Notes: a model not told the origin generated them from the letters alone. DNA of 64,000 bases from Candidatus Omnitrophota bacterium (GCA_041651115.1 JBAZJY010000002.1:222855-286854); one strand, 5' to 3'. Positions 37,012 to 55,803 are shown, counted from the stretch's first letter. A program made the numbers and translations.

Positions 37012-37037
37012 CTGAGTAATTAATAAAGGAGCTATTA

Positions 37038-37118
37038 ATGGGCAAGCGTAAAAGAAGAGGCAAGCTTAACTGGCGTTCAAAGAAAGCCAATAAAGGCAAG
37101 AAGCCCAACCTGGGTTAA
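37038..37118 (+). CDS. Ribosomal protein bTHX-like small basic peptide
   Basis: 26-aa ORF MGKRKRRGKLNWRSKKANKGKKPNLG with an AAGGAG RBS. Resembles Thermus THX (GKGDRRTRRGKIWRG...). Missed by the ORF track because of its size. Confidence 0.55.
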   Translation: MGKRKRRGKLNWRSKKANKGKKPNLG

Positions 37119-37122
37119 GTAA

Positions 37123-37842
37123 ATGGAGATCAGGGTAAGGGCCAGCGATAATATAATCATTCTGGATATTTCCGGCCAGATCGACGTGAATTCGGCGAAT
37201 TTAGTGGAAACTATCGGCCAATGTATCCGCGACGGATATTCCGACATCCTCTGTAATTTTGAAGAAGTCAGTTCCATTGATTATATGGGTTTGTCGGTGA
37301 TCGCTATTGCCTATAAAGAAGTGCTTAATAACGAAGGCCGGATGAAATTCGTCAATGTGCCGGCGCACCTCAAGAACCTGCTTTCCGTTACCGGCTTAAA
37401 CCGCACCATTGAGTCCTACGCTACCGAAGAAATGGCAATAAACAGCTTCCGGGAAGACAAGGCCATTGAGAACATTAAGAAGATGCAGCTTAGGCGCAGG
37501 TTCAAGCGCCTGCCGGTTGACCTTAAGGCAGAGGTCAGGCTTAAATACGGCGGACTGGTTTGTTCCGATATTGAGATCCTGAATTTAAGCGCTGTCGGTG
37601 CCTACATCTTTGGCTGCGATAAATTTAAGCTCGGCGACGAAGTTATCCTGAAGTTTAATATTCCCCCCAAGGCTGAAGTAATGGAGCTGGACGCGAAAGT
37701 TGTCTGGTTCTGCGACCGGCAGATCCAACCGCAACTTTACCCCGGGGTGGGAGTATCTTTTTATAATATTGAGACCAGCGTGCAGGAAAAGCTCCTTGGC
37801 TTCATTGAAAGAAACCTTTCGCTCCTTTCTCCCGAAGACTAG
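37123..37842 (+). CDS. STAS (anti-sigma-factor antagonist) - PilZ fusion protein
   Basis: N-terminal STAS domain (IIILDISGQIDVNSANLVE...LSVTGLNRTIESY). C-terminal PilZ domain with RRRFKR (RxxxR) and NLSAVGA ((D/N)xSxxG) c-di-GMP motifs. Confidence 0.7.
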   Translation: MEIRVRASDNIIILDISGQIDVNSANLVETIGQCIRDGYSDILCNFEEVSSIDYMGLSVIAIAYKEVLNNEGRMKFVNVPAHLKNLLSVTGLNRTIESYATEEMAINSFREDKAIENIKKMQLRRRFKRLPVDLKAEVRLKYGGLVCSDIEILNLSAVGAYIFGCDKFKLGDEVILKFNIPPKAEVMELDAKVVWFCDRQIQPQLYPGVGVSFYNIETSVQEKLLGFIERNLSLLSPED

Positions 37843-37862
37843 CACCCAATATATAAAAAAAC

Positions 37863-37915
37863 TTGACAAAAAGGGCAGCATAGTGTATATTAATAATGGA
37901 AACCATTTTCATTAA
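37863..37915 (+). promoter_or_regulatory. Sigma70-like promoter with overlapping operator palindrome upstream of the Fur-family gene
   Basis: TTGACA (37863-68), 17-bp spacer, TATATT (37886-91). Palindrome AATGGAAACCATT (37895-37907) lies immediately downstream of the -10. Confidence 0.55.
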
Positions 37916-37946
37916 TTCCAGTTACCGGCAGGCAGGGGGAGGATAA

Positions 37947-38420
37947 ATGCCAAGAGGCAATTGTCAGAGGCAGGGATGGTGGCACGGAAAATTCAGGGGA
38001 TGCGGATACAGGCTCACCGTAGGCAGGGAGGCCATCCTTGATATCCTTTCTGGATCAGAAGGCCACTTAAGCGCCGAAGATATCTATATGAAAGTCCATC
38101 CTAAATATCCCAATGTCGGGCTTACCACGATTTACAGGACATTAGATGTATTGTCTAATCTGGGTATGGTTTCTAAGCTTGATTTTGGGGACGGCCGGGC
38201 GCGCTACGAGTTAGCCGAAGGGCCTAAGGGCGCGCATCATCACCATCATTTAGTTTGCACAAGCTGCAATAAGGTAATTGATTATACGGACTTCATAGAT
38301 GAAGAAGTAGAACTCTTAAGGGAAACCGAAAAAGGCCTGGGTGCTAAATATAATTTCAAGATCACCAATCATATGATCCAGTTTTACGGTCTGTGCGGAA
38401 AATGCGGCGGTAAAAAATAA
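37947..38420 (+). CDS. Fur-family metalloregulator (Fur/Zur/PerR type)
   Basis: Winged-helix DNA-binding region (AEDIYMKVHPKYPNVGLTTIYRTLDVL). His-rich HHHHH metal site and two CxxC pairs (CTSCN, CGKCG). Confidence 0.8.
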   Translation: MPRGNCQRQGWWHGKFRGCGYRLTVGREAILDILSGSEGHLSAEDIYMKVHPKYPNVGLTTIYRTLDVLSNLGMVSKLDFGDGRARYELAEGPKGAHHHHHLVCTSCNKVIDYTDFIDEEVELLRETEKGLGAKYNFKITNHMIQFYGLCGKCGGKK

Positions 38421-38435
38421 CCGCTATATTTTTTT

Positions 38436-38460
38436 TCTCTTATAATGGAAATGGTTTTCA
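38436..38460 (+). promoter_or_regulatory. Second copy of the operator-like motif, overlapping a TATAAT box upstream of the DUF5320 operon
   Basis: TTATAATGGAAATGGTTTTCA shares ATAATGGAAA...TTTTCA with the site upstream of the Fur-family gene. A weak hairpin with a T-run (fur terminator) sits just upstream. Confidence 0.4.
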
Positions 38461-38480
38461 CTAACAAAAGGAGGTATGTT

Positions 38481-38816
38481 ATGCCGGGATTTGACGGAAC
38501 AGGCCCGATGGGGCAAAGCCCGATGACGGGCGGAGGAAGAGGGTATTGTGCGATAGCTTTAAAAGGCGCAGGGGTAAGGCCAATAGGCAGAGGCGGTTTT
38601 TATGGCAGAGGCAGAGGCCGCGGGTATAGAAATCGTTTTTATGCGACCGGGCTCCCGGGTTGGGTAAGGGCGCAGAAAGGTATGCAGGCATTTGGCGATT
38701 TCAGCACTGCTATGTCAAAAGATGAAGAATTGTCGATGCTTAAAGACCAGGCCGGTTATCTTAAGGGCGAGCTTGATGCTATTGAGGCGCGCATTCACGA
38801 CTTAGAAAACAAGTAA
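38481..38816 (+). CDS. DUF5320-family protein
   Basis: MPGFDGTGPMGQSPMTGGGRGYC, a Gly/Arg-rich middle region and a C-terminal coiled coil. GGAGG RBS. Confidence 0.55.
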   Translation: MPGFDGTGPMGQSPMTGGGRGYCAIALKGAGVRPIGRGGFYGRGRGRGYRNRFYATGLPGWVRAQKGMQAFGDFSTAMSKDEELSMLKDQAGYLKGELDAIEARIHDLENK

Positions 38817-38834
38817 GAAAGGAGATTGTCAAAC

Positions 38835-39212
38835 ATGAGAGTAGGAGTTGTTTTGGAAGATGAAAATGGAGTGCACGGTAACGTCTGCGCGCATTTTGGC
38901 CAGTGTAAGTTTTTCTTCTTGGCGGATATCGATAAAAATAAGAAAAAAATTATAAGCACTCGCATTGTGCCGAATACGACAGTGCATGGCGGGGGCGGGT
39001 GTGTTGCGGTTGATGAGATATTAAAGTATAAAATAACTCATGTTATTGCCGGCGGGATGGGTATGGGCGCTCAAGCTAAATTCGCGCAGGCAGGTGTCCA
39101 GGTATTCGGCTATTCCGGCAATGTGCAAAAAGCGCTCAATGATTTTATGAATAATGCTTTGGGCGGGCTCGACGCTTGCCGGGAGCACGGCGAAGACGGA
39201 AGTTGCCATTAA
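38835..39212 (+). CDS. NifX/NafY/NifB-C-terminal-like dinitrogenase FeMo-cofactor-binding family protein
   Basis: About 125 aa with the Nitro_FeMo-Co fold pattern (VGVVLEDENGVHGNVCAHFGQCKFF...ITHVIAGGMGMGA). Confidence 0.65.
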   Translation: MRVGVVLEDENGVHGNVCAHFGQCKFFFLADIDKNKKKIISTRIVPNTTVHGGGGCVAVDEILKYKITHVIAGGMGMGAQAKFAQAGVQVFGYSGNVQKALNDFMNNALGGLDACREHGEDGSCH

Positions 39213-39226
39213 GAAAGAAGGTGAAA

Positions 39227-39595
39227 ATGCAAATATGCATAACCTCAGAAGGAAAAACTTTGGATTCCAGGGTTGACCAGCGTTTCGGCCGGTGCCAGAA
39301 TTTTATTTTCTTTGACACCGATAGCGGTAATTTTGAAGCGCAGGAAAATGTCAGTTTCCAGCTCCAGGGAGGAGCCGGTATCCAATCAGCACAGTTTGTG
39401 GCTTCTAAAGGCGCAAAGGCGGTTTTGACCGGCAATGTCGGCCCGAATGCCTTTCAGACACTCAATGCCGGAGGGATCGATATTTATACGGGAGTTAGCG
39501 GAAGCATAAGAGAGGCAATAGAAGCGTATAAATCGGGGAAGCTTAAGAAAATCCAATCTCCCAGCGTTGGTTCTAAATTCGGGATGGGCAAATAA
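39227..39595 (+). CDS. NifX/NafY-like FeMo-cofactor-binding family protein (second copy)
   Basis: MQICITSEGKTLDSRVDQRFGRCQNFIFFD...AVLTGNVGPNA. Confidence 0.65.
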   Translation: MQICITSEGKTLDSRVDQRFGRCQNFIFFDTDSGNFEAQENVSFQLQGGAGIQSAQFVASKGAKAVLTGNVGPNAFQTLNAGGIDIYTGVSGSIREAIEAYKSGKLKKIQSPSVGSKFGMGK

Positions 39596-39610
39596 AATTT
39601 TGGAGGCGCC

Positions 39611-39781
39611 ATGGCGGTAAAGGTAGATGCGGAAAAATGCATTGGTTGCGGCGTTTGTATTGATATATGCCCGGTGCAGGCAATAAAGATCGAGAGAGAA
39701 AAAGTAATCATAAAAGATGATTGCGTTGAATGTGGAGCTTGCATTAATGAGTGCCCGCGAGAAGCAATCTCGTTACATTAA
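39611..39781 (+). CDS. 2[4Fe-4S] ferredoxin
   Basis: 56 aa with two motifs (CIGCGVCIDICP and CVECGACINECP). Not in the ORF track because it is shorter than 60 aa. Confidence 0.8.
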   Translation: MAVKVDAEKCIGCGVCIDICPVQAIKIEREKVIIKDDCVECGACINECPREAISLH

Positions 39782-39798
39782 AAAAGGGGGTAACTCTA

Positions 39799-40050
39799 AT
39801 GCCGTTTTTTGAGCCGTTAGAAAAGATGGATCCCAAGCATGTTGACTTGGAAAGGGCAAGAAAATCTTTGCGTGAAGAGCTTGAGGCAGTCGATTTCTAT
39901 CAGGAAAGGATAGACGCTACGGACGATGAGTCGCTTAAAAAGTTGCTTGCGCATAATATGAACGAAGAAAAAGAACATGCGGCAATGCTTATAGAGTGGA
40001 TCAGAAAGAATGATCCGGTGCAGGATAAGATGTTTGAAGAGCACGATTAG
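39799..40050 (+). CDS. Encapsulated-ferritin-like (EncFtn) protein
   Basis: ELEAVDFYQERIDATDDESLKKLLAHNMNEEKEHAAMLIEWIRKND closely matches EncFtn (compare the R. rubrum EncFtn, EELEAVDWYDQRVDAS...AHNRDEEKEHAAM). Confidence 0.7.
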   Translation: MPFFEPLEKMDPKHVDLERARKSLREELEAVDFYQERIDATDDESLKKLLAHNMNEEKEHAAMLIEWIRKNDPVQDKMFEEHD

Positions 40051-40053
40051 GAG

Positions 40054-40269
40054 GTGGTTAGTATGCCAGGAAAAGACGGAACAGGCCCTTTAGGCCGAGG
40101 CCCGGGAATGGGAAGGGGTATGGGCAGGGGCGGTGGGAATCGTCAAGGAGCAGGGCCGGGAGGGAATTGCGTCTGTCCAGGCTGCGGGATTAAAGTTACG
40201 CATCCGGCAGGCACTCCTTGCGCTTCGATGAATTGTCCTAAGTGCGGGATGAGGATGGTAAGGGAATAA
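40054..40269 (+). CDS. DUF5320-like protein with C-terminal Cys4 zinc-ribbon-like motif
   Basis: MPGKDGTGPLGRGPGMGRGMGRG N-terminus like the 38481 gene. C-terminus CVCPGCG...CPKCG. Confidence 0.5.
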   Translation: MVSMPGKDGTGPLGRGPGMGRGMGRGGGNRQGAGPGGNCVCPGCGIKVTHPAGTPCASMNCPKCGMRMVRE

Positions 40270-40279
40270 GGACTATATT

Positions 40280-40885
40280 TTGAGGAAAAAAGTTCTTGAG
40301 AATCATAAAAAGTATTTAGAAAGAGTAAATTTTTACCGAAGCCACGACTACGATTTAGAAAAAGAAAGAGATTTTATCCTTGATAAATCCCTGCCTATTT
40401 CTGGAAAAATCCTGGAGATCGGGACCGGTAAGGGGCATTTTACGCTTGCCCTGGCAAAGCGCGGCTTTAGTTTTATCAGCGTAGATATCTCTCGTCAGGA
40501 ACAAGAGATAGCCAGGCTGAACTTACGATATTTTAGATTAAAAAATCATGTGCTTTTCAGAATAGAAAATGCAGAACACCTGAGCTTTGCGGATCAAGAC
40601 TTCGGAACAATATTTTCTATTAACGTGTTTCACCACCTTAAAGATCCACAGGTAGTTTTAAATGAAATAGTCCGCTTGCTGCATCCTGCCGGAAAAGTAG
40701 TCTTAAGCGATTTTAGCGAAAAAGGGCTTGAGGTTATCAATATGTGCCATACGCTTGAAGGGCGAACGCACGATTATTTCAAAAACCACTTAGACAAAGC
40801 GAAGGATTACTTTATTAACAAAGGATTTAAGGTTAAGGAATCTCAAAGCGCAGTCCAGAGGGTAATCATCGCCGAATATAAATAA
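40280..40885 (+). CDS. Class I SAM-dependent methyltransferase
   Basis: ILEIGTGKGHFTLALAKRGFSFISVDIS motif I. Confidence 0.7.
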   Translation: MRKKVLENHKKYLERVNFYRSHDYDLEKERDFILDKSLPISGKILEIGTGKGHFTLALAKRGFSFISVDISRQEQEIARLNLRYFRLKNHVLFRIENAEHLSFADQDFGTIFSINVFHHLKDPQVVLNEIVRLLHPAGKVVLSDFSEKGLEVINMCHTLEGRTHDYFKNHLDKAKDYFINKGFKVKESQSAVQRVIIAEYK

Positions 40886-40898
40886 AGACGGAAACGAT

Positions 40899-41750
40899 AT
40901 GATTATTTCAGTTGCAAGCGGTAAGGGGGGCACGGGTAAAACTACGGTTGCGGTTAATCTAGCTTTATCTATTGATAATGTGCAATTCCTGGATTGTGAC
41001 GTTGAAGAACCCAATGCCCATATCTTCCTGAAACCGGCAATTAAAGAACAAACGAAGGCTTATATTCCCGTTCCCGGGATCGATGAATCTAAATGTATAT
41101 ATTGCGGAAAATGTGCTGAAATCTGCGTTTATAATGCACTAGCGGTACTTCCGGGACAGGAAGGTAAGAAAGGCACAACTTTGGTGTTTGCGCATCTTTG
41201 CCATGGCTGCGGCGCCTGCAGCGCCTTATGCCCTGAAAAGGCAATAAAAGAAATAAACAGGGAAATTGGCTTAGTGGAATTCGGTAATTGTGGCCGGATA
41301 GAATTTATTCATGGAAAACTCAATATCGGCGAAGCAATGTCCCCGCCTTTAATCCGCCAGGTTAAAGAACATATTGATTTTAAAAAAACCGTTATCATTG
41401 ACGCTCCTCCGGGCACATCCTGTCCTGTAGTCGCTTCAGTTAAGGACAGCGATTTTTGCGTATTAGTTACTGAACCCACGCCTTTTGGTTTAAATGACCT
41501 GATTTTAGCGGTGGAGGTATTGAGAAAATTAAAGATACCTTTCGGGGTGGTAATTAACCGTGCGGATTTAGGAAACAATAAAACCGATGAATACTGCAGG
41601 CAAGAAGATATCGCGGTATTGATGAGAATACCGTTTAAAAAAGAAATTGCGATGGCTTATTCAAAGGGAGAGCCTATGATTAAGGCGTTCCCGGAGTATA
41701 AAAAAGATTTTCAAGGCCTTTTTAATGCAATCAAAATGGAAATTTCATAA
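40899..41750 (+). CDS. MinD/ParA-superfamily P-loop ATPase with inserted 2x[4Fe-4S] ferredoxin domain
   Basis: SGKGGTGKTT P-loop. CIYCGKCAEIC and CHGCGACSALCP cluster motifs. IIDAPPGTSCP. Confidence 0.8.
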   Translation: MIISVASGKGGTGKTTVAVNLALSIDNVQFLDCDVEEPNAHIFLKPAIKEQTKAYIPVPGIDESKCIYCGKCAEICVYNALAVLPGQEGKKGTTLVFAHLCHGCGACSALCPEKAIKEINREIGLVEFGNCGRIEFIHGKLNIGEAMSPPLIRQVKEHIDFKKTVIIDAPPGTSCPVVASVKDSDFCVLVTEPTPFGLNDLILAVEVLRKLKIPFGVVINRADLGNNKTDEYCRQEDIAVLMRIPFKKEIAMAYSKGEPMIKAFPEYKKDFQGLFNAIKMEIS

Positions 41751-41781
41751 AAGAGATAGGTATCGTTAAGCGATAGACAAA

Positions 41782-42633
41782 ATGAAACAAATTGTAATTA
41801 TCAGCGGAAAAGGCGGCACCGGTAAGACCGTGATTACGGGGGCATTTGCCGCTTTAGCTAAGAATAAAGTTATGGCTGACTGCGATGTGGATGCCGCGGA
41901 TTTGCATTTATTATTACAGCCAAAAATTAAAGAACGCCATGATTTTAGAAGCGGATTAAGCGCTTCAATTGACAAAAGAATCTGTCAGCAATGCGGAAAG
42001 TGCATAGCAGCCTGCAGATTTAATGCTATAAGTGACGATTTTGTGGTTGATCATGTTTCCTGCGAAGGGTGCGGTTTTTGCAGTCATATTTGCCCGGTTC
42101 AGGCTATAAAGATGAACGAGAATCTTGCGGGAGAGTGGTTTATTTCCGAAACACGCTTTGGCCCTATGGTACATGCGAAACTCGGGATTGCCGAAGAGAA
42201 TTCCGGTAAACTCGTTTCTTTGGTAAGAAAACAGGCAAAAGAGTTAGCAGAAAAAAATAATTGCGATTGGGTCATTATTGACGGCGCTCCCGGTATAGGG
42301 TGTCCTGTTATCGCGTCTCTTTCCGGTATCGATTGCGCGGTAGTGGTGACTGAACCTACGTTATCCGGCCTGCATGACGCATCGAGGGTCATAGAAGTAG
42401 CCCGGCATTTTAATGTGCCTTCGCGGCTGGTGATTAATAAGTACGATTTAAATCCGGATATGTCAAAAAAAATAGAAGAATATTGCGCAAAAAATAAGAT
42501 TTTATTAATAGGTAAAGTTGGATTTGATAAAACGGTTGTGGAGGCCATGGTAGATGGTAAGACCATAATGGAATATAAGGATACGGCAATTAAGGGTGAA
42601 ATTGCTGAAATATGGGAAAAACTACAGGGTTAA
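41782..42633 (+). CDS. MinD/ParA-superfamily P-loop ATPase with 2x[4Fe-4S] ferredoxin domain (paralog)
   Basis: SGKGGTGKTV. CQQCGKCIAAC and CEGCGFCSHICP. IIDGAPGIGCP. Confidence 0.8.
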   Translation: MKQIVIISGKGGTGKTVITGAFAALAKNKVMADCDVDAADLHLLLQPKIKERHDFRSGLSASIDKRICQQCGKCIAACRFNAISDDFVVDHVSCEGCGFCSHICPVQAIKMNENLAGEWFISETRFGPMVHAKLGIAEENSGKLVSLVRKQAKELAEKNNCDWVIIDGAPGIGCPVIASLSGIDCAVVVTEPTLSGLHDASRVIEVARHFNVPSRLVINKYDLNPDMSKKIEEYCAKNKILLIGKVGFDKTVVEAMVDGKTIMEYKDTAIKGEIAEIWEKLQG

Positions 42634-43010
42634 AAAAAGAAACACTCGGCTATCCTGAAAAGGTTATCAGGCTTTTAAATAACCCGAAATTCTTCGGCAG
42701 GATGAACGATCCCGCGAGTTCGGCGTATTTAAAAGGGCCTTGCGGGGATTCTATGGAGTTTTATTTGGTGATAGAAGGCGGCAAGATTACCGAGATCAAA
42801 TATTATACGGATGGATGCGGCGCCACAAGGGCATGCGCGGCAATGGTTACGTATTTGGCTCATGGTAAAAGCATCAAGGAAGCATTGGCTATCTCAGCGG
42901 GAGAGGTAATTAAACAATTGAAAGGCCTGCCGGAAAACCACCTGCACTGTTCGATACTTTCTGTAAGTACGCTATATCGGGCGATAGCGGATTATTTATT
43001 AAGAAAGTAA
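42612..43010 (+). CDS. IscU/NifU N-terminal-domain-like Fe-S scaffold protein
   Basis: GPCGDSMEFYL...YTDGCGATRACAAM...LHCSILSV, the three conserved Cys and His of the IscU type. Confidence 0.7.
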   Translation: MGKTTGLKKETLGYPEKVIRLLNNPKFFGRMNDPASSAYLKGPCGDSMEFYLVIEGGKITEIKYYTDGCGATRACAAMVTYLAHGKSIKEALAISAGEVIKQLKGLPENHLHCSILSVSTLYRAIADYLLRK

Positions 43011-43025
43011 GAAAAGGATATCTAA

Positions 43026-43856
43026 ATGCAGCAAATGAATGAAGATGATCTTTTGAAGCAGGAAAAACGCCTTAAGGATAATATGGGGAAGGTCAAATAC
43101 ACGCTTATCGTTATGAGCGGCAAGGGCGGGGTGGGTAAGACATCTGTCGCGGTAAACCTTGCGTATGCCTTATCTTTAGCAGGCAAAAGCGTTGGAATTA
43201 TGGATGTTGATATCCACGGCCCGAATATTGCCAAGATGCTTGGTATTGAGAAGCGCTCCTTATGTGGTTTTGAATCTGGAATCCGGCCGGTTGAGGTATC
43301 CGGCAATCTTAAGGCAGTAAGCGTTGCGCTGGCCGGGTATGATGCAGATCAACCGATGATCTGGCGGGGGCCAATGAAAGCGGCGCTGATCAGGCAATTC
43401 CTGGCTGATGTAAATTGGGGGAAACTCGATTATCTTATTATAGATTCTCCTCCGGGAACCGGTGATGAGCCGTTAAGTGTCTGCCAGCTTATTACTAATG
43501 TTACGGGGGCGATTATCGTTACTACTCCTCAAGATGTAGCGGTCCTAGACGCGCGTAAGAGCATTCAGTTTGCTAAAGAATTAAAGATTCCCATAGTTGG
43601 GATAATTGAAAACATGAGCGGTTTTACTTGTACGCATTGCGGGAAAGAGATAGATATTTTTAAGCGAGGAGGCGGGGAAAAAGCTGCGCAAGAATTAAAA
43701 GTCCCCTTTTTAGGAAGGGTACCGTTTCAACCGGAGTTTGTTGAATTCGCGGATAGGGGAACGCCGTTCGTTTCGTTCAAAGAAAAATCAAAATCTGCCG
43801 AAGCTTTTATGGGCATAGTGAGCAAAATAAAGGAATTTATTGGGGATAGAGGATGA
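43026..43856 (+). CDS. apbC: Mrp/NBP35 (ApbC) Fe-S cluster carrier ATPase
   Basis: MSGKGGVGKTSVAVNLA deviant Walker A, IIDSPPGTGDE, and the CTHCG cluster-binding CxxC. Confidence 0.85.
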   Translation: MQQMNEDDLLKQEKRLKDNMGKVKYTLIVMSGKGGVGKTSVAVNLAYALSLAGKSVGIMDVDIHGPNIAKMLGIEKRSLCGFESGIRPVEVSGNLKAVSVALAGYDADQPMIWRGPMKAALIRQFLADVNWGKLDYLIIDSPPGTGDEPLSVCQLITNVTGAIIVTTPQDVAVLDARKSIQFAKELKIPIVGIIENMSGFTCTHCGKEIDIFKRGGGEKAAQELKVPFLGRVPFQPEFVEFADRGTPFVSFKEKSKSAEAFMGIVSKIKEFIGDRG

Positions 43857-43997
43857 AGCCCGCAGAAGAGAACCTGCCCTTGCAGCCAATTTAGGAGAGG
43901 CAATAAAAGCAGCAAGGGCGCTCCGTCCATGATGAAAGGCAGGCGGTGAATATTTCTTCAATAAGCGATGAGGACACATTAAAAAGAAGAGGAAAGG

Positions 43998-44897
43998 TTG
44001 AGTGAGGTGAAGACTTATTTAGATTGTATCCCGTGTTTTTTTCGCCAGGCGCTTGAGGGAGCGCGGATTGTCCGCGCATCCCCAAAGCAGCAAAAGCAGA
44101 TTATAGATGCATTTGCCAGGAAAATACCGAATATCTCGCTTGAAGCCAGTCCGCCTGAGATAGCCAGGATCGGATATGCTCTTTTAAAAAAGGTAAGCCA
44201 TCAGAAAGATCCTTATAAGGGTATAAAACAAAAGAGTAACCGCATTGCCCTAGGGTTGCTGGGGAGGCTGAAGAATAAAGTAGATCGCGCAAAGGATAGG
44301 TTTTTAACAGCATTAGAATTAGCGATTGCCGGAAACATCATTGATTTTGGCGTAAAGAATAATTTAAATATAAAAACAGAATTAAAAAATATCCTCGCAG
44401 AAGAAAACAGGGCCATTCACAAAAAATCCATATTTCATTATTCCGAGTTCAAAAGGACATTAAAAGGCGCAAAAAATATTTTGTATCTGGCTGATAATGC
44501 GGGCGAAGTGGTATTTGACCGGGTTTTAATTGAAGAAATAAAAAAAGTCTATCCCGATAAAAATATTTATTATGCTGTTAAGGCAGAGCCTATTATAAAT
44601 GACGCCTTGCTTGAAGATGCTAAAGTTTGCGGAATTGATAAGCTTGTCCGGGTAATTCCTAACGGCACGGACGCACCGGGAACAATACTTTCTCTATGTT
44701 CAAATGAATTTAAGCGGATTTATAACAGCGTAGATATGATCATCAGTAAGGGGCAAGGGAATTTTGAGTCTTTATCGCAGAAAAAACGGCCTATTTTCTT
44801 TTTATTTATGGTGAAATGTCCGGTTGTAGCTAAGGAGACCGGATGTAAAATGGGGAGCATAGTATTACTTTACAATTTAAAGAAAAAATGCGGATAA
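43998..44897 (+). CDS. DUF89 (ARMT1-like damage-control phosphatase) family protein
   Basis: LADNAGEVVFD and ISKGQGNFESL motifs typical of DUF89. Confidence 0.55.
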   Translation: MSEVKTYLDCIPCFFRQALEGARIVRASPKQQKQIIDAFARKIPNISLEASPPEIARIGYALLKKVSHQKDPYKGIKQKSNRIALGLLGRLKNKVDRAKDRFLTALELAIAGNIIDFGVKNNLNIKTELKNILAEENRAIHKKSIFHYSEFKRTLKGAKNILYLADNAGEVVFDRVLIEEIKKVYPDKNIYYAVKAEPIINDALLEDAKVCGIDKLVRVIPNGTDAPGTILSLCSNEFKRIYNSVDMIISKGQGNFESLSQKKRPIFFLFMVKCPVVAKETGCKMGSIVLLYNLKKKCG

Positions 44898-45601
44898 GGG
44901 TAATTTTTGATAAAAGTTCTTTAGACGAAAAACTCCGTATCGGCTGGGGCGTTTCATTCATGATCGACAATAAAATCTTATTCGATACCGGCGAAAAAGG
45001 TCCATGGCTTATTGAGAATATGGACTATCTGGGGGTGGATATTGCGGGGATTGAAGCAGCGGTAATTTCTCATGATCATTGGGATCATACGGGAGGGCTG
45101 TGGGAGATACTGAAAGAAAGAAAGGGGCTTAAGGTATTTTCCTGCCCAGGCTTTAACAAAGAATTTAAGGATAAGGTAAAAGAAGCGCAAGCCGAATTAA
45201 TCGGAGCCGAAAAGTTTATGGAAATTTCGAAAGATATCTTTATTACAGGAGAAATACCCGGCGCCTATCACGGCAAATATATGCCTGAACAGGCAGTTGT
45301 ATTAAAAACAAAAAACGGCCTTACCATAATTACAGGATGCGCTCATCCCGGGATTTTAAAAATAATAGAGAAGGTTAAGACGAGGTTTCCCGCCGAGCCT
45401 GTTTACCTTGTAATGGGCGGGTTTCATTTTAAGGAGTCGGACAGGCGGGCAATAGAGATAGCAGCCGAAAATTTTAAAAAAATGGGAATAATGAAAGCCG
45501 GGCCCACGCATTGCTCCGGAGAGGTGGCGGAAGATATTTTTAAAAAATGCTATGAGGAAAATTTTGTGCCGATTAAAGTAGGACAAGAGTTAGAGGTTTG
45601 A
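44888..45601 (+). CDS. MBL-fold metallo-hydrolase
   Basis: AAVISHDHWDHTGG (HxHxDH). Confidence 0.7.
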   Translation: MRIRVIFDKSSLDEKLRIGWGVSFMIDNKILFDTGEKGPWLIENMDYLGVDIAGIEAAVISHDHWDHTGGLWEILKERKGLKVFSCPGFNKEFKDKVKEAQAELIGAEKFMEISKDIFITGEIPGAYHGKYMPEQAVVLKTKNGLTIITGCAHPGILKIIEKVKTRFPAEPVYLVMGGFHFKESDRRAIEIAAENFKKMGIMKAGPTHCSGEVAEDIFKKCYEENFVPIKVGQELEV

Positions 45602-45604
45602 TAA

Positions 45605-46237
45605 ATGGCAGGGCAGATTTTAAAGGAATTAAAGGCGCACGCCCCATTTACTGTATTTGGGGCAATCACGGGGATAGCCATCATGGCATTTTCGTTAAAT
45701 TTGCCTTATAAGGTTTCATATAATATCTTTTATGTGCTTCATCCGTTACATGTGTTTTTAAGCGCGTTGGTTACCGCAGCAATGTATAAACTTCATACCT
45801 GCTCCGGCATAGGCGCCAATTGTATCAAGGGAAAGTGTAATTTTTGGGCTTTAACTATAATCGGCTATATTGGTTCTGTGGGTATTGCTACTGTGAGCGA
45901 TTCATTGATTCCCTATATAGCTGAAACCATGCTTGGTATGCCTAATAGAGGAATACACCTTGGTTTCATTGAGAAGTGGTGGTTGGTTAATCCGTTGGCT
46001 ATTCTAGGCATAATTATTGCCTATCGGAGACCAAAGACAAAATTTCCCCATGCCGGACACGTATTGTTAAGCACCTGGGCGTCGTTATTCCATATAATTA
46101 TGGCTAATGTGGGGGTCTTAAGCTGGTTTTCGTACGCCACTATTTGTATATTCTTGTTCTTGGCGGTTTGGATCCCCTGCTGTGTAAGCGATATAGTTTT
46201 CCCGTTATTATTTGTAGACAATAACAGAATAAAATAA
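45605..46237 (+). CDS. Polytopic membrane protein of unknown function with conserved His residues
   Basis: About 6 TM segments. HPLH and PHAGH motifs. A role as a metal transporter is speculative. Confidence 0.35.
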   Translation: MAGQILKELKAHAPFTVFGAITGIAIMAFSLNLPYKVSYNIFYVLHPLHVFLSALVTAAMYKLHTCSGIGANCIKGKCNFWALTIIGYIGSVGIATVSDSLIPYIAETMLGMPNRGIHLGFIEKWWLVNPLAILGIIIAYRRPKTKFPHAGHVLLSTWASLFHIIMANVGVLSWFSYATICIFLFLAVWIPCCVSDIVFPLLFVDNNRIK

Positions 46238-46248
46238 AAACTAGAGAC

Positions 46249-46593
46249 ATGCATGAGACGAGGTTTATTAACGAGATATTTACGGTTTTAAGGCAGAAGC
46301 TGGGTAAAGAAAGGGCCGTGCAACAGGTCATAGTTAATGCCCGTTTAAGCCCTTTTAGCCATGTTTCTGCCGAAAGCCTCCAGGGATCTTTTAAGGAGTT
46401 GATCAAGGGGGAGAGTTTTAAGAATGTGCGGCTTAAAATCCTGCCCCTTGAGGTCTTATTAGAGTGTAAAGATTGCAAGCGCGCAAGCCGTATTACTAAA
46501 AGAGTATTCGCCTGTCCTTTTTGCAACAGCGCGGATCTTAATATTCAAATGGACAGAGAGTTTTTCGTTGAATCAATGGAAATCGTAAGTTAA
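46249..46593 (+). CDS. hypA: Hydrogenase/urease nickel-insertion protein HypA
   Basis: MHE N-terminus plus the zinc-site CKDC...CPFC. 114 aa. Confidence 0.8.
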   Translation: MHETRFINEIFTVLRQKLGKERAVQQVIVNARLSPFSHVSAESLQGSFKELIKGESFKNVRLKILPLEVLLECKDCKRASRITKRVFACPFCNSADLNIQMDREFFVESMEIVS

Positions 46594-46609
46594 GATAAGG
46601 AGGCAAAAG

Positions 46610-46927
46610 ATGGGGATTAATATAAATGACGATAATTTTAAACAAGAGGTGCTGGAAGAAGGTCTGCCCGTATTAGTGGATTTTTGGGCCGTATGGTGCG
46701 GGCCTTGTCTTAGGTTTGCGCCGGTAATCGAAGAGATTGCCAGGGAGTATGAAGGAAAGTTAAAGGTTTGCAAATTAAACGTGGATGAAGCGCCTAAGAC
46801 AGCTTCCGGATATGATATCATGAGCATACCGACATTAGCGATTTTTAAAAATGGGAAGGTAATGGATAAAATGGTAGGCGCGCCTTCTAAGATAGAACTT
46901 GAGGCCGCCATTAAATCTTATATATGA
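46610..46927 (+). CDS. trxA: Thioredoxin
   Basis: WAVWCGPC active site. 105 aa. Confidence 0.85.
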   Translation: MGININDDNFKQEVLEEGLPVLVDFWAVWCGPCLRFAPVIEEIAREYEGKLKVCKLNVDEAPKTASGYDIMSIPTLAIFKNGKVMDKMVGAPSKIELEAAIKSYI

Positions 46928-46934
46928 TTACAGC

Positions 46935-47252
46935 ATGACAAATTTTAAGCAGATTGATGAAGCAAGAAAGATCCTAGGGTTGGGCGAAGAGGCCAGCATA
47001 GAGGAAATTAAAGAAGCCTTTAGGCGCCTGGCCCTTAAGTATCACCCCGACAGATGCAGCGAGAAAGATAAGAAATACTACGAAGAAATATTTAAAAAGG
47101 TAAGCCACGCAAAAGATATTATCGGGAGTTACTGTGCGAATTACCGCTATTCTTTTAAAGAGAAAGAAGTTAAGAAGAATGCCATGCCAAAAGAGGAATA
47201 TGAGCATCTTAAAAGATTTTATGACGGCTGGTTCGGAGATTTAGGGTTATGA
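46935..47252 (+). CDS. J-domain (DnaJ-like) protein
   Basis: IEEIKEAFRRLALKYHPDR. No DnaJ zinc-finger or C-terminal domains. Confidence 0.7.
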   Translation: MTNFKQIDEARKILGLGEEASIEEIKEAFRRLALKYHPDRCSEKDKKYYEEIFKKVSHAKDIIGSYCANYRYSFKEKEVKKNAMPKEEYEHLKRFYDGWFGDLGL

Positions 47253-47869
47253 ACGATGTCTTTGATAAGTATTATAAGGAATATGACGTATGGTATGACA
47301 AGCATAAGTTTGCTTTTTTATCTGAGATCGAAGCGATAAAAAAAGTTTTTCCGCGCCATGCAAGAGGGTTGGAAATTGGCGTAGGTACAGGCAGGTTTGC
47401 CGCGAGCTTAGGTATTACAATGGGGATAGACCCTTCGGGCAAAATGCTTAAGATCGCCCAGGAGAGGGGAGTGAACGTCCGTTTAGGTTTTGGCGAAGAT
47501 ATCCCTTTCCCGAACGGGGTTTTTGACTGCGTGGTAATCGTTATTACTTTATGTTTCGTAAAAGATCCCGAGAGAGTTCTCAAAGAAGCGTCCAGGATAT
47601 TGGAGAAAAACGGCAAAATAATAATCGGCATAGTAGACAAACAAAGCTTTCTGGGTAAATATTACCGAAAGAAGAAAAGCGCATTTTATAAGCAGGCAAA
47701 ATTCTTGAGCGTGAAAGAAATAACGGACCTGCTTAAGGCGGCGGGTTTCGGCCGCTTTTCTTATTATCAGACAATATCAATTTTACCTGATAAGATGGAT
47801 TCCATAGAAAAGCCCAGGAAAGGCTTTGGCAAGGGCGGATTTGTGGTTATATCGGCAAAAAAGCAATAA
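47249..47869 (+). CDS. Class I SAM-dependent methyltransferase (UbiE/COQ5-like)
   Basis: GLEIGVGTGRFAASLG motif I. Confidence 0.7.
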   Translation: MNDVFDKYYKEYDVWYDKHKFAFLSEIEAIKKVFPRHARGLEIGVGTGRFAASLGITMGIDPSGKMLKIAQERGVNVRLGFGEDIPFPNGVFDCVVIVITLCFVKDPERVLKEASRILEKNGKIIIGIVDKQSFLGKYYRKKKSAFYKQAKFLSVKEITDLLKAAGFGRFSYYQTISILPDKMDSIEKPRKGFGKGGFVVISAKKQ

Positions 47870-47884
47870 GAAATAAAAAAATCC

Positions 47885-47935
47885 TTGACAATTATTGCCT
47901 TAGTGTTACGATATTTAAAATCGTAGCACTAAGGA
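47885..47935 (+). promoter_or_regulatory. Promoter plus 15-bp-arm palindromic operator upstream of nikR
   Basis: TTGACA (47885-90), 16-nt spacer, TACGAT. CCTTAGTGTTACGAT-atttaaa-ATCGTAGCACTAAGG inverted repeat (one mismatch) spans the -10 to the RBS. Confidence 0.5.
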
Positions 47936-47940
47936 GAGTT

Positions 47941-48357
47941 ATGGCCCAATTAGTCAGATTCGGAGTTTCCCTGGAGCAAGACCTGCTTGTAAAATTCGAC
48001 ACCCGCATCAAAAATAATAATTATACCAACCGTTCCGAAGCGATCCGCGACCTGATCCGCGAGGACTTAGTTAAAGAAGAATGGCAGAAAGGCAAAGAAG
48101 TCGCCGGTTCGATCACGCTTGTTTATGACCACCATAGGCGCGAGCTTGTGAACAAGCTTCTGGATATCCAGCATGATTTCGGGCACTGTATTATTTCCTC
48201 GCAGCATATCCATATTGACCATAATAATTGCCTTGAGATAATTGCCGTAAAGGGCTCGCCGGAAAAGGTTCAGCGCCTGTCGGAAAGCCTAAGGTCGATA
48301 AAAGGCATGAAGCATTCGGCGTTGGGTATGTCTACTACGGGCAAAGGCATACTATAA
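47941..48357 (+). CDS. nikR: Nickel-responsive regulator NikR
   Basis: Ribbon-helix-helix N-terminus (LVRFGVSLEQDLLVKFD...SEAIRDLIRE) and a C-terminal nickel-binding domain with His residues (HHRRE...HIHIDH). Confidence 0.85.
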   Translation: MAQLVRFGVSLEQDLLVKFDTRIKNNNYTNRSEAIRDLIREDLVKEEWQKGKEVAGSITLVYDHHRRELVNKLLDIQHDFGHCIISSQHIHIDHNNCLEIIAVKGSPEKVQRLSESLRSIKGMKHSALGMSTTGKGIL

Positions 48358-48387
48358 ACATAAAATACCAAAAAGAAGGAGGGGGAT

Positions 48388-49755: not shown

Positions 49756-49776
49756 AATTTAAAGGAGGATAGGATT

Positions 49777-50798: not shown

Positions 50799-50801
50799 TC
50801 G

Positions 50802-52435: not shown

Positions 52436-52436
52436 T

Positions 52437-52760: not shown

Positions 52761-52790
52761 TAATATTAAAGTCACAGAGCGAGGAGCGTA

Positions 52791-55793: not shown

Positions 55794-55803
55794 GCGGTTA
55801 ATT

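Follow-up and report, generated by a model that had tools for sequence, protein, structure and literature searches.

A predicted Fur-controlled variant of the orange protein (ORP) cluster in a Candidatus Omnitrophota bacterium

The window analysed here is a 64,000-nucleotide stretch of DNA from a Candidatus Omnitrophota bacterium (GCA_041651115.1, JBAZJY010000002.1:222855-286854). An earlier note had described positions 37863-45601 as a Fur-headed candidate locus for metallocluster assembly or storage. Pfam profile searches, which that note had proposed, found each of its named genes on the + strand at the position given and bore out its domain calls, with matches for DUF5320, Nitro_FeMo-Co and EncFtn (PF17253, PF02579 and PF22277). 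Thirteen genes follow fur in this range, where fourteen had been counted. The features are as follows.

37863..37891, +, sigma-70-like promoter of fur (TTGACA-17-TATATT; 11/12 match, top site within 37000-50000)
37894..37914, strand., predicted Fur box 1 (TAATGGAAACCATTTTCATTA), lying 3' of the -10 hexamer and 5' of the fur RBS
37947..38420, +, Fur-family regulator with N-terminal extension, cluster-head subfamily (PF01475, 1.6e-32)
38397..38436, +, hairpin and T-run at the fur stop codon, possible attenuator/terminator (fold -13.2 kcal/mol, z = -3.0)
38443..38463, strand., predicted Fur box 2 (TAATGGAAATGGTTTTCACTA), immediately 5' of the DUF5320 RBS
38481..38816, +, DUF5320 long form, DUF5320L (PF17253, 7.7e-22)
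38826..39212, +, NifX-like protein A, Nitro_FeMo-Co, putative free Di-Nase domain (PF02579, 5.8e-18)
39227..39595, +, NifX-like protein B, orange protein (Orp8) homologue, MTH1175/IssA-like group (Nitro_FeMo-Co, 2.8e-25)
39611..39781, +, 2x[4Fe-4S] ferredoxin, 56 aa (Fer4 families)
39799..40050, +, EncFtn-like ferritin-like protein, lineage-specific insertion (PF22277, 2.1e-31)
40063..40269, +, short Cys-rich DUF5320-like protein, DUF5320S, candidate Orp5 counterpart (Pfam 0.0041, under the gathering score)
40280..40885, +, class I SAM methyltransferase (accessory)
40899..41750, +, MinD-type ATPase (CbiA/ParA+Fer4) with inserted 2x[4Fe-4S] domain, paralogue 1, Orp3/Orp4 type
41782..42633, +, MinD-type ATPase (CbiA/ParA+Fer4) with inserted 2x[4Fe-4S] domain, paralogue 2
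42612..43010, +, divergent U-type (IscU/NifU_N) Fe-S scaffold with three ligand cysteines (PF01592, 3.8e-26)
43026..43856, +, Mrp/NBP35 carrier of MrpORP type, without Di-Nase domain (PF10609, 6.9e-96)
43998..44897, +, DUF89/ARMT1-like metal-dependent phosphatase (accessory; PF01937, 2.3e-68; PDB 2G8L, 1e-40)
44888..45601, +, MBL-fold hydrolase (accessory; PDB 7DCK, 2e-36, and TM1679, 9e-26, both uncharacterised)
45605..46237, +, 210-aa Cys/His-rich membrane protein
46249..46593, +, HypA nickel metallochaperone, N-terminal MHE and two CxxC pairs (PF01155, 1.8e-18)
46610..47869, +, thioredoxin, J-domain protein and second methyltransferase, forming the operon tail (gaps 7 and -4 nt)
47941..48357, +, NikR, start of a neighbouring nickel-uptake unit outside the system proper (NF003381, 177 bits, above cut-off)

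Intergenic gaps lie between -22 and +31 nt, with the exceptions of 60 nt 3' of fur and 141 nt 5' of DUF89; the latter gap was searched for a promoter, a terminator, a Fur box and an Rfam element, and none was found. The extent given earlier is right in that the genes are co-directional and tightly spaced, but its end is not, as the packed run goes on to at least 47869 through the membrane protein, HypA, thioredoxin, J-domain protein and second methyltransferase genes. This extended order is kept through the second methyltransferase in the closest relatives, loci L098 and L001. The first position, 37863, is the -35 hexamer of the fur promoter, and most related loci likewise have a TTGACA/TATAAT layout ahead of fur. 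NikR has its own promoter-like site (47885-47912), with a porin and then a CbiMNQO-type transporter downstream. As the earlier note had stated, nitrogenase genes and NifB are absent, and this holds for the whole 64-kb window.

A comparison set of 163 related loci, drawn from many phyla of bacteria and archaea, was surveyed with the window's proteins, and neighbourhood conservation across it is far above chance. The two ATPase paralogues neighbour each other in 150/163 loci. NifX-like B co-occurs in 126, DUF5320S in 72, NifX-like A in 68, Mrp in 65, DUF5320L in 62 and, within the cluster, the IscU-like protein in 48. Natural fusions join NifX to DUF5320, NifX to ferredoxin, ferredoxin to DUF5320, Mrp to NifX, and IscU to Mrp (the last in L071). 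Judged by sequence, these fusions link all five proteins to one another, and with the ATPase adjacency and the co-occurrence counts they argue for a single system. Recurrence of a NifX-like, MinD-Fer4 and DUF5320 neighbourhood in anaerobes, which the earlier note had put forward, is thus upheld, and the proposed neighbourhood analysis found the gene order conserved in other loci.

Paralogue 1 of the ATPases shares 45-61% identity across phyla, archaea included, and has a signature-lysine Walker A motif, SGKGGTGKT. All eight ferredoxin cysteines of the ATPases are 100% conserved (255 sequences), as is the switch II Cys174 of paralogue 2; in paralogue 1, the switch II Cys175 is conserved at 99% and Cys33 at 98%. 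The Walker A motif and the conserved ferredoxin and switch II cysteines suggest that the ATPases act as metallochaperones. A conserved switch II cysteine recalls the metal sites of CooC, HypB and NifH. In Desulfobacterota, orange-protein genes are flanked by orthologues of both paralogue lineages.

PDB matches of NifX-like B include the D. gigas orange protein (2WFB, 6e-19), 1RDU and 1EO1 (both 9e-23), and the protein is 46-55% identical to ORP-position proteins from other phyla. It has a pI of 9.0, 2 Cys and 17.5% Gly over the last 40 residues. The sole NCBIfam match of NifX-like A is to positions 273-364 of the MrpORP model, the Di-Nase part (4e-13). Its CAHFGQC motif near the N-terminus and its C-terminal Cys/His resemble the CXHFGHCE/CDH motifs published for the MrpORP system (PMC6345978). 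Mrp itself, with GKGGVGKT and CTHC motifs, aligns to positions 2-249 of 365 of the same model at 360 bits, versus 233 bits for ApbC. Hence, MrpORP appears to be encoded here as two separate genes, Mrp and the free Di-Nase domain of NifX-like A. The IscU-like protein scores 97 bits on TIGR03419, below the cut-off of 188. DUF5320L consists of an N-motif, a cationic region rich in Gly, Arg and aromatic residues, and a C-terminal coiled coil; its residues 1-75 have a pI of 11.2 with 21 Gly, 9 Arg, 10 aromatic residues, 5 Pro and 1 Cys. DUF5320S is placed in the same family because of a shared N-terminal motif and its 72 homologues in related loci, which usually lie immediately 5' of the ATPase pair and share the motif CxCPxCG-x4-H-x4-PC-x4-CPxCG. 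The small ferredoxin is found in 34/163 related loci, in some of which it is fused to NifX or DUF5320.

Taken together, the 2WFB match, the higher MrpORP than ApbC score, the Di-Nase-only match, the ATPase orthology and the gene order identify the locus, at the level of sequence, as an Omnitrophota variant of the ORP cluster, which is widespread in anaerobes and partly characterised. Besides the orange-protein homologue, the shared core comprises another NifX-like protein, the pair of MinD-Fer4 ATPases, a MrpORP-type Mrp and DUF5320 proteins. As this core is that of the published ORP cluster of Desulfovibrio, DVU2103-2109 (PMC6345978, PMC8359166, PMC4641369), the pathway is not undescribed, as had been claimed; "uncharacterised" is fair for its function but not for its existence. 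The Desulfovibrio complex has been purified, with Orp3, Orp4 and Orp8 co-purifying; MrpORP passes Fe-S clusters to Orp3/Orp4, and its Di-Nase domain binds a [3Fe-4S] cluster (PMC6345978). The D. gigas orange protein carries [S2MoS2CuS2MoS2]3- (PMC6345978 and references therein), a native Mo-Cu rather than Fe-S cluster, which counts against an Fe-S function. In gene order, DUF5320S-ATPase-ATPase mirrors DVU2105-2103 and DUF5320L-NifX-Mrp mirrors DVU2107-2109 (PMC4641369). By position and composition alone, DUF5320S and DUF5320L are candidate counterparts of Orp5 and DVU2107, respectively; in Desulfobacterota loci, a small Zn-ribbon protein of another type is an alternative candidate for Orp5. 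Compared with the known ORP cluster, the locus adds Fe-S scaffold/carrier genes and a dedicated, putative iron-type Fur repressor.

This regulator is nearest to iron Fur (134 bits on the NCBIfam Bacillus-type Fur model, 88 on PerR and 40 on Zur) and its best PDB matches are Fur. Boxes 1 and 2 are the only two Fur-box matches in the 64 kb (0.3-0.4 expected), and the box consensus is near the canonical Fur box. The position of box 1 is kept in related loci, and that of box 2 holds a box in many, some of them without a neighbouring fur gene; the layout of one box at the fur promoter and one 5' of DUF5320 is retained across phyla. In 1.87 Mb of loci the box matched 65 times, versus 12 in reversed-sequence controls; 19 of the 65 adjoin fur and 18 adjoin DUF5320L, including loci without an adjacent fur. 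Fur stands at the cluster head in 24 of the 102 clusters with a judgeable 5' end, and in 19 of these DUF5320L comes next. A "ATATTTTTTT" tract 3' of fur is likewise kept in related loci. The Fur control suggested earlier thus gains from two predicted sites that are unique in the window and conserved in related loci. As feoAB, also in the 64-kb window, has no full Fur box, the metal sensed could differ.

EncFtn, DUF89, the MBL-fold protein, the methyltransferases, HypA, thioredoxin and the J-domain protein would be lineage-variable accessories. The EncFtn-like protein aligns to positions 1-80 of 114 of TIGR04535 only. The earlier note had taken this ferritin as support for an iron pathway; it carries little weight because it occurs in 6/163 loci only, has no targeting tail and has no encapsulin in the 64-kb window. 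ATPases in those six loci, which have no taxonomic labels, are 61-75% identical to the window's. The first methyltransferase is found at its position in 27/163 loci, with Omnitrophota, Planctomycetales, Dehalococcoidia and Leptospirales MAGs among the labelled ones, DUF89 in 22/163 and the MBL-fold gene in 43/163. The 210-aa membrane protein has no match in Pfam or NCBIfam; its homologues in six loci (L001, L004, L007, L063, L089 and L098; Omnitrophota and Phycisphaerales MAGs where labelled) lie 3' of MBL or DUF89 in five and 5' of the ATPase pair in L063. HypA stands at its position in the window, L098 and one further locus only, and the thioredoxin/J-domain/methyltransferase trio also follows the cluster in L001 and L098.

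The most likely function of the system is the iron-responsive, ATP-driven assembly, carriage or buffering of Fe-S clusters; the iron or Fe-S theme put forward earlier is plausible. It is reasonably probable that an ORP variant with scaffold/carrier genes, in one long operon under a dedicated Fur, works as follows. The IscU-like scaffold would make Fe-S clusters, and a dimer of the MrpORP-type Mrp would hold a bridging [4Fe-4S] cluster and pass it onward. An ATPase heterodimer, each subunit with two [4Fe-4S] clusters and a switch II cysteine, would be the ATP-driven engine that loads, reduces or releases metal-sulfide clusters, which the orange-protein homologue and the free Di-Nase domain, as the two NifX-like carriers, would hold non-covalently. 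Partner or adaptor roles may fall to the DUF5320 proteins, which are cationic and Gly/Arg-rich, and to the small ferredoxin. Fur on both operators would repress its own gene and the operon, tying the system to iron status; in the simplest case the operon would be derepressed at low iron, like suf in E. coli. This logic would be inverted if apo-Fur were the repressor or if Fur acted by activation. A ferritin-like gene inside a low-iron-induced operon is unusual and counts against this explanation, as does the lack of a cysteine desulfurase within the 64 kb for Fe-S assembly. The hairpin and T-run at the end of fur and the 141-nt gap before DUF89 may also break up the unit.

Fe-S storage rather than assembly is possible but unlikely. 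NifX-like B and a cationic DUF5320 would be a split IssA holding an anionic thioferrate-like polymer, mobilised by the ATPases, Mrp and the IscU-like protein, with ferric iron from EncFtn. NifX-like B is as near MTH1175 (9e-23), a member of the IssA clade, as it is to ORP, and its pI, Cys and Gly values satisfy the looser 'IssX' criteria (PMC5524996). DUF5320L residues 1-75 fit the IssA tail as described in publication, NifX+DUF5320 fusions in L009, L150 and L060 recreate the IssA architecture, and the IssA-clade Mvol_0689 and Mvol_0693 are up on FeS2 in M. voltae (PMC9431491). However, a NifX fusion is absent among the top 150 of the 2373 DUF5320 family representatives, and IssA acts alone, without partner proteins (PMC5524996). 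Classical Fur repression would moreover turn the store on at low iron, whereas IssA is produced under plentiful iron and sulfide. A Mo/W-Cu-S alternative is the storage or detoxification of thiomolybdate or thiotungstate with copper in sulfidic habitats, which homology to the Mo-Cu-bearing D. gigas orange protein (PMC6345978) and the non-covalent holding of anionic metal-sulfide clusters by NifX-like domains would favour. It has only a slim chance, given that molybdate/tungstate transport, molybdopterin and copper genes are absent in or beside the locus, the regulator and operators are iron-Fur-like and the genes found alongside encode IscU-like and Mrp proteins.

A MinD-like positioning or cell-division system with the clusters as redox sensors only, first proposed for the Desulfovibrio ORP complex, draws on the MinD/ParA family of the ATPases, the morphological defects upon OrpR loss and the polar MrpORP of D. 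vulgaris (PMC6345978, PMC8359166). It is improbable here: MinC, MinE, FtsZ and other division genes are absent from the window and the 163 surveyed loci, the ATPases are constantly accompanied by cluster-carrier, scaffold and Fe-S proteins, control through iron-type Fur boxes suits metal handling better, and the cluster is equally conserved in archaea with other division machineries. Little credence is likewise given to a machine dedicated to maturing a single complex metalloenzyme (e.g. a Ni-Fe-S or other hetero-metal cluster enzyme), with ATPases like CooC, HypB or NifH-type insertases. HypA within the operon, NikR and a Ni/Co ECF transporter directly downstream, the conserved switch II cysteine and radical SAM and DUF2099 genes inside the L001 cluster point that way, but HypA and NikR co-occur in 2-3/163 loci only, no conserved candidate client enzyme lies beside the cluster, and its wide distribution implies a general function. 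The minority occurrence of DUF89, MBL, the methyltransferases, thioredoxin, the J-domain protein, HypA and EncFtn, the 141-nt gap and the other genes inserted at the same places in L001 could also mean a metal-homeostasis island, in which unrelated genes stand co-directional with a Fur-regulated ORP core by chance. This is very improbable in view of the short remaining gaps, the gap's lack of promoter-like, terminator-like and Rfam elements, the recurrence of MBL, DUF89 and IscU/Mrp within clusters of distant phyla and the order retained in L001 and L098.

With the ORP variant as the preferred reading, what is new is a Fur subfamily heading clusters, two near-canonical predicted boxes, an apparently split MrpORP and the natural fusions. 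Fur and its two conserved predicted operator sites offer a testable link from an ORP-type cluster to iron status.

The window derives from a MAG of Candidatus Omnitrophota, and all real genes between 37863 and 47869 lie on its + strand. The earlier note's observation of a Fur-family regulator followed by metallocluster genes was confirmed, and Pfam and NCBIfam profile searches back all of its domain calls; the fourteen genes it placed after fur number thirteen up to 45601. The domains run in the order Fur, long DUF5320, two Nitro_FeMo-Co, a 56-aa 2x[4Fe-4S] ferredoxin, EncFtn-like, a short Cys-rich DUF5320-like protein whose Pfam score is below threshold, methyltransferase, two CbiA/ParA with 2x[4Fe-4S], NifU_N, Mrp, DUF89, and MBL-fold. 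Past 45601 the run continues unbroken to 47869 with a 210-aa membrane protein, HypA, a thioredoxin, a J-domain protein, and a second methyltransferase. No recognisable signal lies in the 141-nt gap 5′ of DUF89, and an Rfam search of this gap and the leader returned no riboswitch or RNA element at E ≤ 0.1.

Main features of the locus (window coordinates)
37863-37891, + strand, sigma-70-like promoter, 11/12 match
37894-37914, palindrome TAATGGAAACCATTTTCATTA (Fur box 1), directly 3′ of the promoter
38443-38463, palindrome TAATGGAAATGGTTTTCACTA (Fur box 2), a near copy of box 1, just 5′ of the DUF5320 RBS
38481-38816, + strand, long DUF5320 protein (DUF5320L)
38826-39212, + strand, NifX-like A
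39227-39595, + strand, NifX-like B
40063-40269, + strand, short DUF5320 protein (DUF5320S)
40899-41750, + strand, MinD-type ATPase paralogue 1
41782-42633, + strand, MinD-type ATPase paralogue 2
42612-43010, + strand, IscU-like scaffold
45605-46237, + strand, membrane protein
46249-46593, + strand, HypA

The earlier note read the locus as an undescribed metallocluster system. Its iron or Fe-S theme stands, as does Fur control in the form of predicted boxes, but the system is not undescribed, as its core is the known orange protein (ORP) system. NifX-like B consists of a single PF02579 domain and is a homologue of the orange protein itself, Orp8. It matches the D. gigas orange protein structure 2WFB at 6e-19, with TM1290 and MTH1175 matching equally well, and shares 46% identity with the protein in the ORP position of one Desulfobacterota locus. 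The adjacent MinD-like ATPase paralogues carry two [4Fe-4S] motifs apiece, as do the paired ATPases Orp3 and Orp4, and each matches a distinct paralogue of the Desulfobacterota ORP loci with 45–50% identity. This pairing with different ATPases of the ORP-homologue loci indicates two old paralogue lineages. Orp3, Orp4, and Orp8 co-purify and receive Fe-S clusters from MrpORP, the Di-Nase domain of which binds a [3Fe-4S] cluster, while the role of the ORP complex is still unclear (PMC6345978, PMC8359166).

MrpORP (Orp9) in its fused form of Mrp and Di-Nase is absent from the locus; both parts are present on separate genes. The Walker A and CxxC motifs are intact in Mrp, which scores 360 bits on the NCBIfam MrpORP model over positions 2-249 of 365, below the 450 cut-off, and 233 bits on ApbC, scores that place it in the MrpORP subgroup. 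NifX-like A matches only the C-terminal Di-Nase part of the same model (positions 273-364), and its CAHFGQC motif and C-terminal Cys/His resemble the published description of that domain (PMC6345978). As one protein fits the front of MrpORP and the other its end, Orp9 is split in two genes here, and fused Mrp-NifX forms occur in two related loci, L057 and L143. Mrp/NBP35/ApbC carriers (Nbp35-Cfd1, Ind1, ApbC) share the deviant Walker A GKGGVGKT and the dimer-bridging [4Fe-4S] CxxC; unlike these, the window Mrp gene sits within a cluster of its presumed clients.

The orp operons of Desulfovibrio vulgaris Hildenborough (DVU2103-DVU2109) were reportedly described by Fievet in 2011. They comprise DVU2105-2103 and DVU2107-2109 (PMC4641369), laid out as a small protein with two ATPases and a small protein with ORP and MrpORP, respectively. 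The commonest orders in our survey, DUF5320S-ATPase-ATPase and DUF5320L-NifX-Mrp, are the same. DUF5320S (68 aa, 6 Cys) lies ahead of the ATPase pair with a methyltransferase gene between them, and is directly adjacent in many related loci. Its position parallels that of DVU2105 before DVU2104-2103 (PMC4641369), making it a candidate Orp5/Dde_3197 counterpart by position and composition. On the same two grounds, we infer that the DUF5320 proteins correspond to DVU2105 and DVU2107. Desulfobacterota loci have a Zn_ribbon_8 protein in place of DUF5320S, and in some of them this could be an alternative Orp5.

Loci found via D. gigas ORP homologues have the order ORP, ATPase, ATPase, NifX-like, and two carry a Desulfobacterota label. 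The homologues P0138, P0203, P0124, P0122, and P0200 lie in Desulfobacterota-type loci, and the divergent OrpR arrangement seen in D. vulgaris occurs in none of these. At the end of four loci found in this way (L002, L164, L165, L166) lies a small protein of the Zn_ribbon_8 family (PF09723); in all but L165, which has DUF134 upstream, a receiver-domain protein comes next. These neighbours point to other regulatory set-ups and another Orp5 candidate.

The locus shares with the D. vulgaris ORP system an orange-protein homologue, two MinD-type 2x[4Fe-4S] ATPases, an MrpORP-type Mrp, a Di-Nase domain with its Cys/His motif, a Cys-rich small protein before the ATPase pair, another small protein before the orange protein, and restriction to anaerobes. 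However, D. vulgaris has two divergent operons under the sigma-54 activator OrpR and a single MrpORP protein, whereas here a single long operon is associated with Fur and Fur boxes and encodes Mrp and a free NifX-like protein. The IscU-like scaffold, ferredoxin, EncFtn, methyltransferases, DUF89, MBL, membrane protein, HypA, thioredoxin, and J-domain protein are additional. The ORP system is also characterised by a physical complex and a Mo-Cu cluster on the orange protein. Regulation by OrpR and sigma-54 was rejected, as sigma-54 motif matches are not enriched and none is intergenic, no EBP gene was found, and the sole match to the OrpR palindrome is unrelated. The novel elements are the conserved link to a Fur regulon, the split MrpORP, a network of gene fusions, and the association with an IscU-like scaffold.

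The survey comprised 163 loci: 80 of those in GTDB species genomes, retrieved with an ATPase alignment as query, 80 of those in metagenomes, and three earlier ones. Six-frame ORFs of all loci were searched with the window proteins using phmmer at E < 1e-5. Contig ends often break loci, hence the counts per gene are lower bounds. Gene-neighbourhood conservation is borne out, most strongly for the adjacent ATPase pair and NifX-like B.

Occurrence of window genes among the 163 loci
ATPase pair, adjacent: at least 150
NifX-like B: at least 126
DUF5320S: at least 72
NifX-like A: at least 68
Mrp: at least 65
DUF5320L: at least 62
IscU-like: at least 48
MBL: at least 43
Ferredoxin: at least 34
Fur: at least 28
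Methyltransferase 1: at least 27
DUF89: at least 22
EncFtn: at least 6

Hosts of the GTDB loci include Omnitrophota, Planctomycetota, WOR-3, Clostridia, Chloroflexota, Desulfobacterota, Ignavibacteria, and Leptospirales, and the archaeal Bathyarchaeia, Methanocellaceae, Altiarchaeota, and Thorarchaeota, with ATPase identities of 45–61% across bacterial phyla and archaea. The ATPase family is much larger than the 163 loci gathered. Among the closest relatives, gene order is kept through HypA, thioredoxin, J-domain protein, methyltransferase, and NikR in L098, and through thioredoxin, J-domain protein, and methyltransferase in L001. The latter, from Omnitrophota (GCA_028714715.1), lacks Mrp and EncFtn and has DUF2099, radical SAM, peptide deformylase, Rrf2 regulator, and AdoMet decarboxylase-like genes inserted in the same operon frame (11713-15750). 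The Desulfobacteraceae MAG CAYMQN01 contains two separate MinD-Fer4 clusters (L038 and L167), one ORP-type and one Mrp-type, so paralogous systems can coexist in one genome.

Several components that are separate in the window occur as fusions in stop-free ORFs of related loci. An apparent NifX-IscU fusion in L050 was dropped because its ORF crosses a masked X run.

Fusions in stop-free ORFs of related loci
NifX-B with DUF5320S: L009
NifX-B with DUF5320L: L150
NifX-B with a Gly/Arg region, coiled coil, and ferredoxin: L060, L077
Ferredoxin with DUF5320L: L140, L033
Mrp with NifX: L143, L057
IscU with Mrp: L071

The Fur protein (PF01475, 1.6e-32) has an HHHHH His-rich stretch and two CxxC pairs. 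It scores 134 bits on iron Fur, 88 on PerR, and 40 on Zur, below the equivalog cut-offs, and its best PDB matches are also iron Fur. By both measures it is closest to iron-type Fur. The two boxes are the only full Fur-box matches in 64 kb, where 0.3–0.4 are expected, and the observed count of the consensus pattern was reached by 0 of 100 shuffles. The consensus TAATGAAAATSATTWTCAWTAA agrees with the canonical Fur box GATAATGATAATCATTATC at 15 of 16 core positions. A hairpin and T-run with a fold z of -3.0 separate the fur stop codon from box 2. With metal-site residues in the protein and palindromic boxes at promoters, the locus has the features of a predicted iron-type Fur regulon.

The same succession of promoter, box, fur, T-run, box, and DUF5320 is seen in loci of Omnitrophota, WOR-3, and Syntrophaceae and on many metagenome contigs without assignment; Clostridia loci have a box 5′ of fur only. 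Fur heads 24 of the 102 clusters with an assessable 5′ end, with DUF5320L next in 19 of the 24. The 1.87 Mb of loci contain 65 consensus matches against 12 in reversed-sequence controls; 19 of the 65 are next to fur and 18 next to DUF5320L, some of them in loci that have no adjacent fur, such as L041, L042, and L051. Like suf, the E. coli operon for Fe-S assembly under stress or low iron, which Fur represses, the locus has genes for Fe-S scaffold and carrier proteins behind a promoter with a Fur operator. The proteins, however, are wholly different, with no SufBCD or SufSE in the locus, and unlike in suf the locus includes the fur gene and has its operator in duplicate.

The Furs at cluster heads make up a subfamily whose N-terminal extension (MPxxxGxGPxWWHG+FRGCGYR; 37947-38020 in the window) is conserved. 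It is missing in ordinary Fur proteins and bears a faint likeness to the N-motif of DUF5320, which we treat as tentative, as a single Fur reached E = 3.6e-3 against a motif HMM. Through this extension the regulator might respond to whatever partner or cluster DUF5320 senses. The N-motif itself (MPGxDGTGPxGxGPMTGRGxGYC) is a separate module of ~24 residues, found in tandem copies in several family members (P0253, P0256, P0263, P0268, P0343, P0374, P0386), each copy running from Met-Pro to a conserved Cys. Genes for the ferrous iron transporter FeoA/FeoB lie 10 kb downstream (58567-60532). A Fur box 5′ of feoAB (58480-58566) was rejected as a half-site only, hence the cluster-linked Fur may not be a general iron-uptake regulator.

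Neither ATPase has lost the signature-lysine Walker A or any of the eight ferredoxin cysteines. A switch II cysteine (PGxxCP) is 99–100% conserved in both paralogues across 255 sequences (141 and 114 homologues), and paralogue 1 alone has an extra DCD-motif cysteine, 98% conserved. The nucleotide-dependent SIMIBI metallocluster ATPases NifH, CooC, HypB, and Get3 share the dimer-dependent deviant Walker A and a switch II cysteine near the presumed interface; unlike these, the window ATPases have an inserted 2x[4Fe-4S] ferredoxin domain and would act as a paralogue pair. NifH, CooC, HypB, and Mrp serve as analogues for a metal or cluster site at a dimer interface. This analogy suggests that the window ATPases may have such a site coupled to nucleotide state, with the switch II and DCD cysteines as candidates, and we infer the role of the former on this basis. 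Given the published transfer from MrpORP to Orp3/Orp4 and the co-purification of these with Orp8, the simplest chain would run from the IscU-like scaffold to Mrp, the ATPase heterodimer, and the NifX-like carriers. The DUF5320 proteins and ferredoxin would act as partners, and the scaffold is tentatively placed upstream of Mrp.

An attractive variant has the NifX-like and DUF5320 proteins storing iron and sulfide in the manner of IssA, the thioferrate Fe-S storage protein of Pyrococcus furiosus. The NifX-type domain of IssA belongs to the same broad clade as MTH1175, which has been assigned to the IssA clade (PMC5524996). Residues 1-75 of DUF5320L (pI 11.2, 21 Gly, 9 Arg, 10 aromatic, 1 Cys) agree with what has been published on the IssA tail, and natural NifX-DUF5320 fusions have the IssA architecture. 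However, this cationic, Gly/Arg/aromatic, mostly disordered, single-Cys segment is a separate protein here, fused to NifX in some relatives, whereas IssA carries the tail on its own protein. IssA is defined by a pI of ≥9, <5 Cys, and ≥20% Gly in the last 40 residues (PMC5524996). NifX-like B has the IPR003731/PF02579 globular domain, matches MTH1175 at 9e-23, and has a pI of 9.0 and 2 Cys, but with 7 Gly in 40 (17.5%) and a 12-residue tail it falls outside IssA and within the looser 'IssX'. As for the link between DUF5320 and the IssA tail, the best 150 family representatives are stand-alone or N-motif-duplicated with 0 NifX fusions; any sequence homology would be hypothetical, and the link draws on composition and three or four fusions in the loci. 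Classical Fur repression would moreover express the store at low iron, a logic probably opposite to that of IssA. IssA also works alone and forms Fe-S (thioferrate) nanoparticles, whereas the NifX-like proteins here always accompany two ATPases. Literature searches on DUF5320, COG1149/COG1433, and Fur with NifX-like genes returned nothing functional except the ORP and IssA papers. A broader proposal joins the MinD-Fer4 pair, NifX-like, DUF5320, Mrp, and IscU-like proteins in a distinct ancient ATP-driven pathway of bacteria and archaea with a dedicated Fur switch. Iron and sulfide would be buffered as protein-bound Fe-S polymer or clusters and fed to [4Fe-4S] proteins apart from ISC, SUF, and NIF, with DUF5320 as a detached IssA tail and the ATPase heterodimer as loading and unloading motor; we consider this unlikely.

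NifX, NafY, and NifB-C carriers of FeMo-co belong to the same PF02579 fold family and bind complex metal-sulfide clusters non-covalently, but the window sequences group with ORP, MTH1175, and TM1290 rather than NifX or NafY, and there is no NifEN. A nitrogenase or FeMo-co role was rejected: as the earlier note held, no nitrogenase genes or NifB occur among all large ORFs of the window, with nifHDK, nifEN, and nifB absent from the 64 kb and none detected in related loci. The lone B12-radical SAM gene of the window (28111-29532) lies within a glycan cluster. The EncFtn-like protein (PF22277, 2.1e-31) shares the four-helix ferroxidase domain and Glu/ExxH residues of encapsulated EncFtn, and aligns to TIGR04535 over positions 1-80 of 114 only. 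Unlike encapsulated EncFtn, it lacks a C-terminal targeting peptide; no encapsulin family was found in any scanned ORF of the window, the next gene being DUF5320S, and a nanocompartment was rejected. It is a rare insertion limited to a few related loci, the six being metagenome contigs with ATPases 61–75% identical to those of the window. The IscU-like scaffold (PF01592, 3.8e-26) keeps three ligand cysteines in the motifs GPCGD, DGCG, and HCS. Searches for a cysteine desulfurase (IscS/NifS) and HscAB found no aminotransferase class V in the window ORFs, and only the small J-domain protein downstream.

Among the accessory genes, DUF89 is structurally closest to PH1575 and MBL to uncharacterised proteins, and both occur in a minority of clusters. 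The multi-pass membrane protein (6 Cys, 8 His) has no Pfam or NCBIfam match and may be a metal permease. Its homologues occur in at least six related clusters (those labelled being Omnitrophota and Phycisphaerales MAGs), in five after MBL or DUF89. HypA, with an N-terminal MHE motif, adjoins a nickel module (47941-53534) of NikR with its own promoter-like site, an OprB-type porin, a CbiM/PDGLE/CbiQ/CbiO ECF transporter, and a ZIP transporter; the HypA-to-NikR order is kept in L098. Genes for hydrogenase, urease, and CODH are absent from the window. Upstream, a STAS (anti-sigma antagonist) and PilZ-like fusion protein (37123-37842) and a CsgG-like lipoprotein gene with a companion lipoprotein (35672-37011) appear unrelated to the operon. 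A trehalose synthesis cluster (53559-58490) encodes a GT20 trehalose-6-phosphate synthase-like fusion, trehalose phosphatase, DUF5752, and a TreT-type synthase.

Among anaerobe gene sets of unsolved function, few are as widespread and well conserved as the ORP-type clusters, whose two ATPases share 50–60% identity between Omnitrophota, Clostridia, Chloroflexota, Desulfobacterota, and several archaeal phyla. The locus touches on the open question of iron and sulfide storage and traffic in strict anaerobes. The analysis turns the idea of a role in cell division into a specific, testable iron/Fe-S hypothesis, without thereby settling the function. As MrpORP can be split, the Di-Nase domain functions as a protein of its own, and the fusions join DUF5320, NifX-like, ferredoxin, IscU, and Mrp proteins in a single functional network. 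Evidence from across phyla places a large subset of these clusters in a predicted Fur regulon with a defined two-operator layout.
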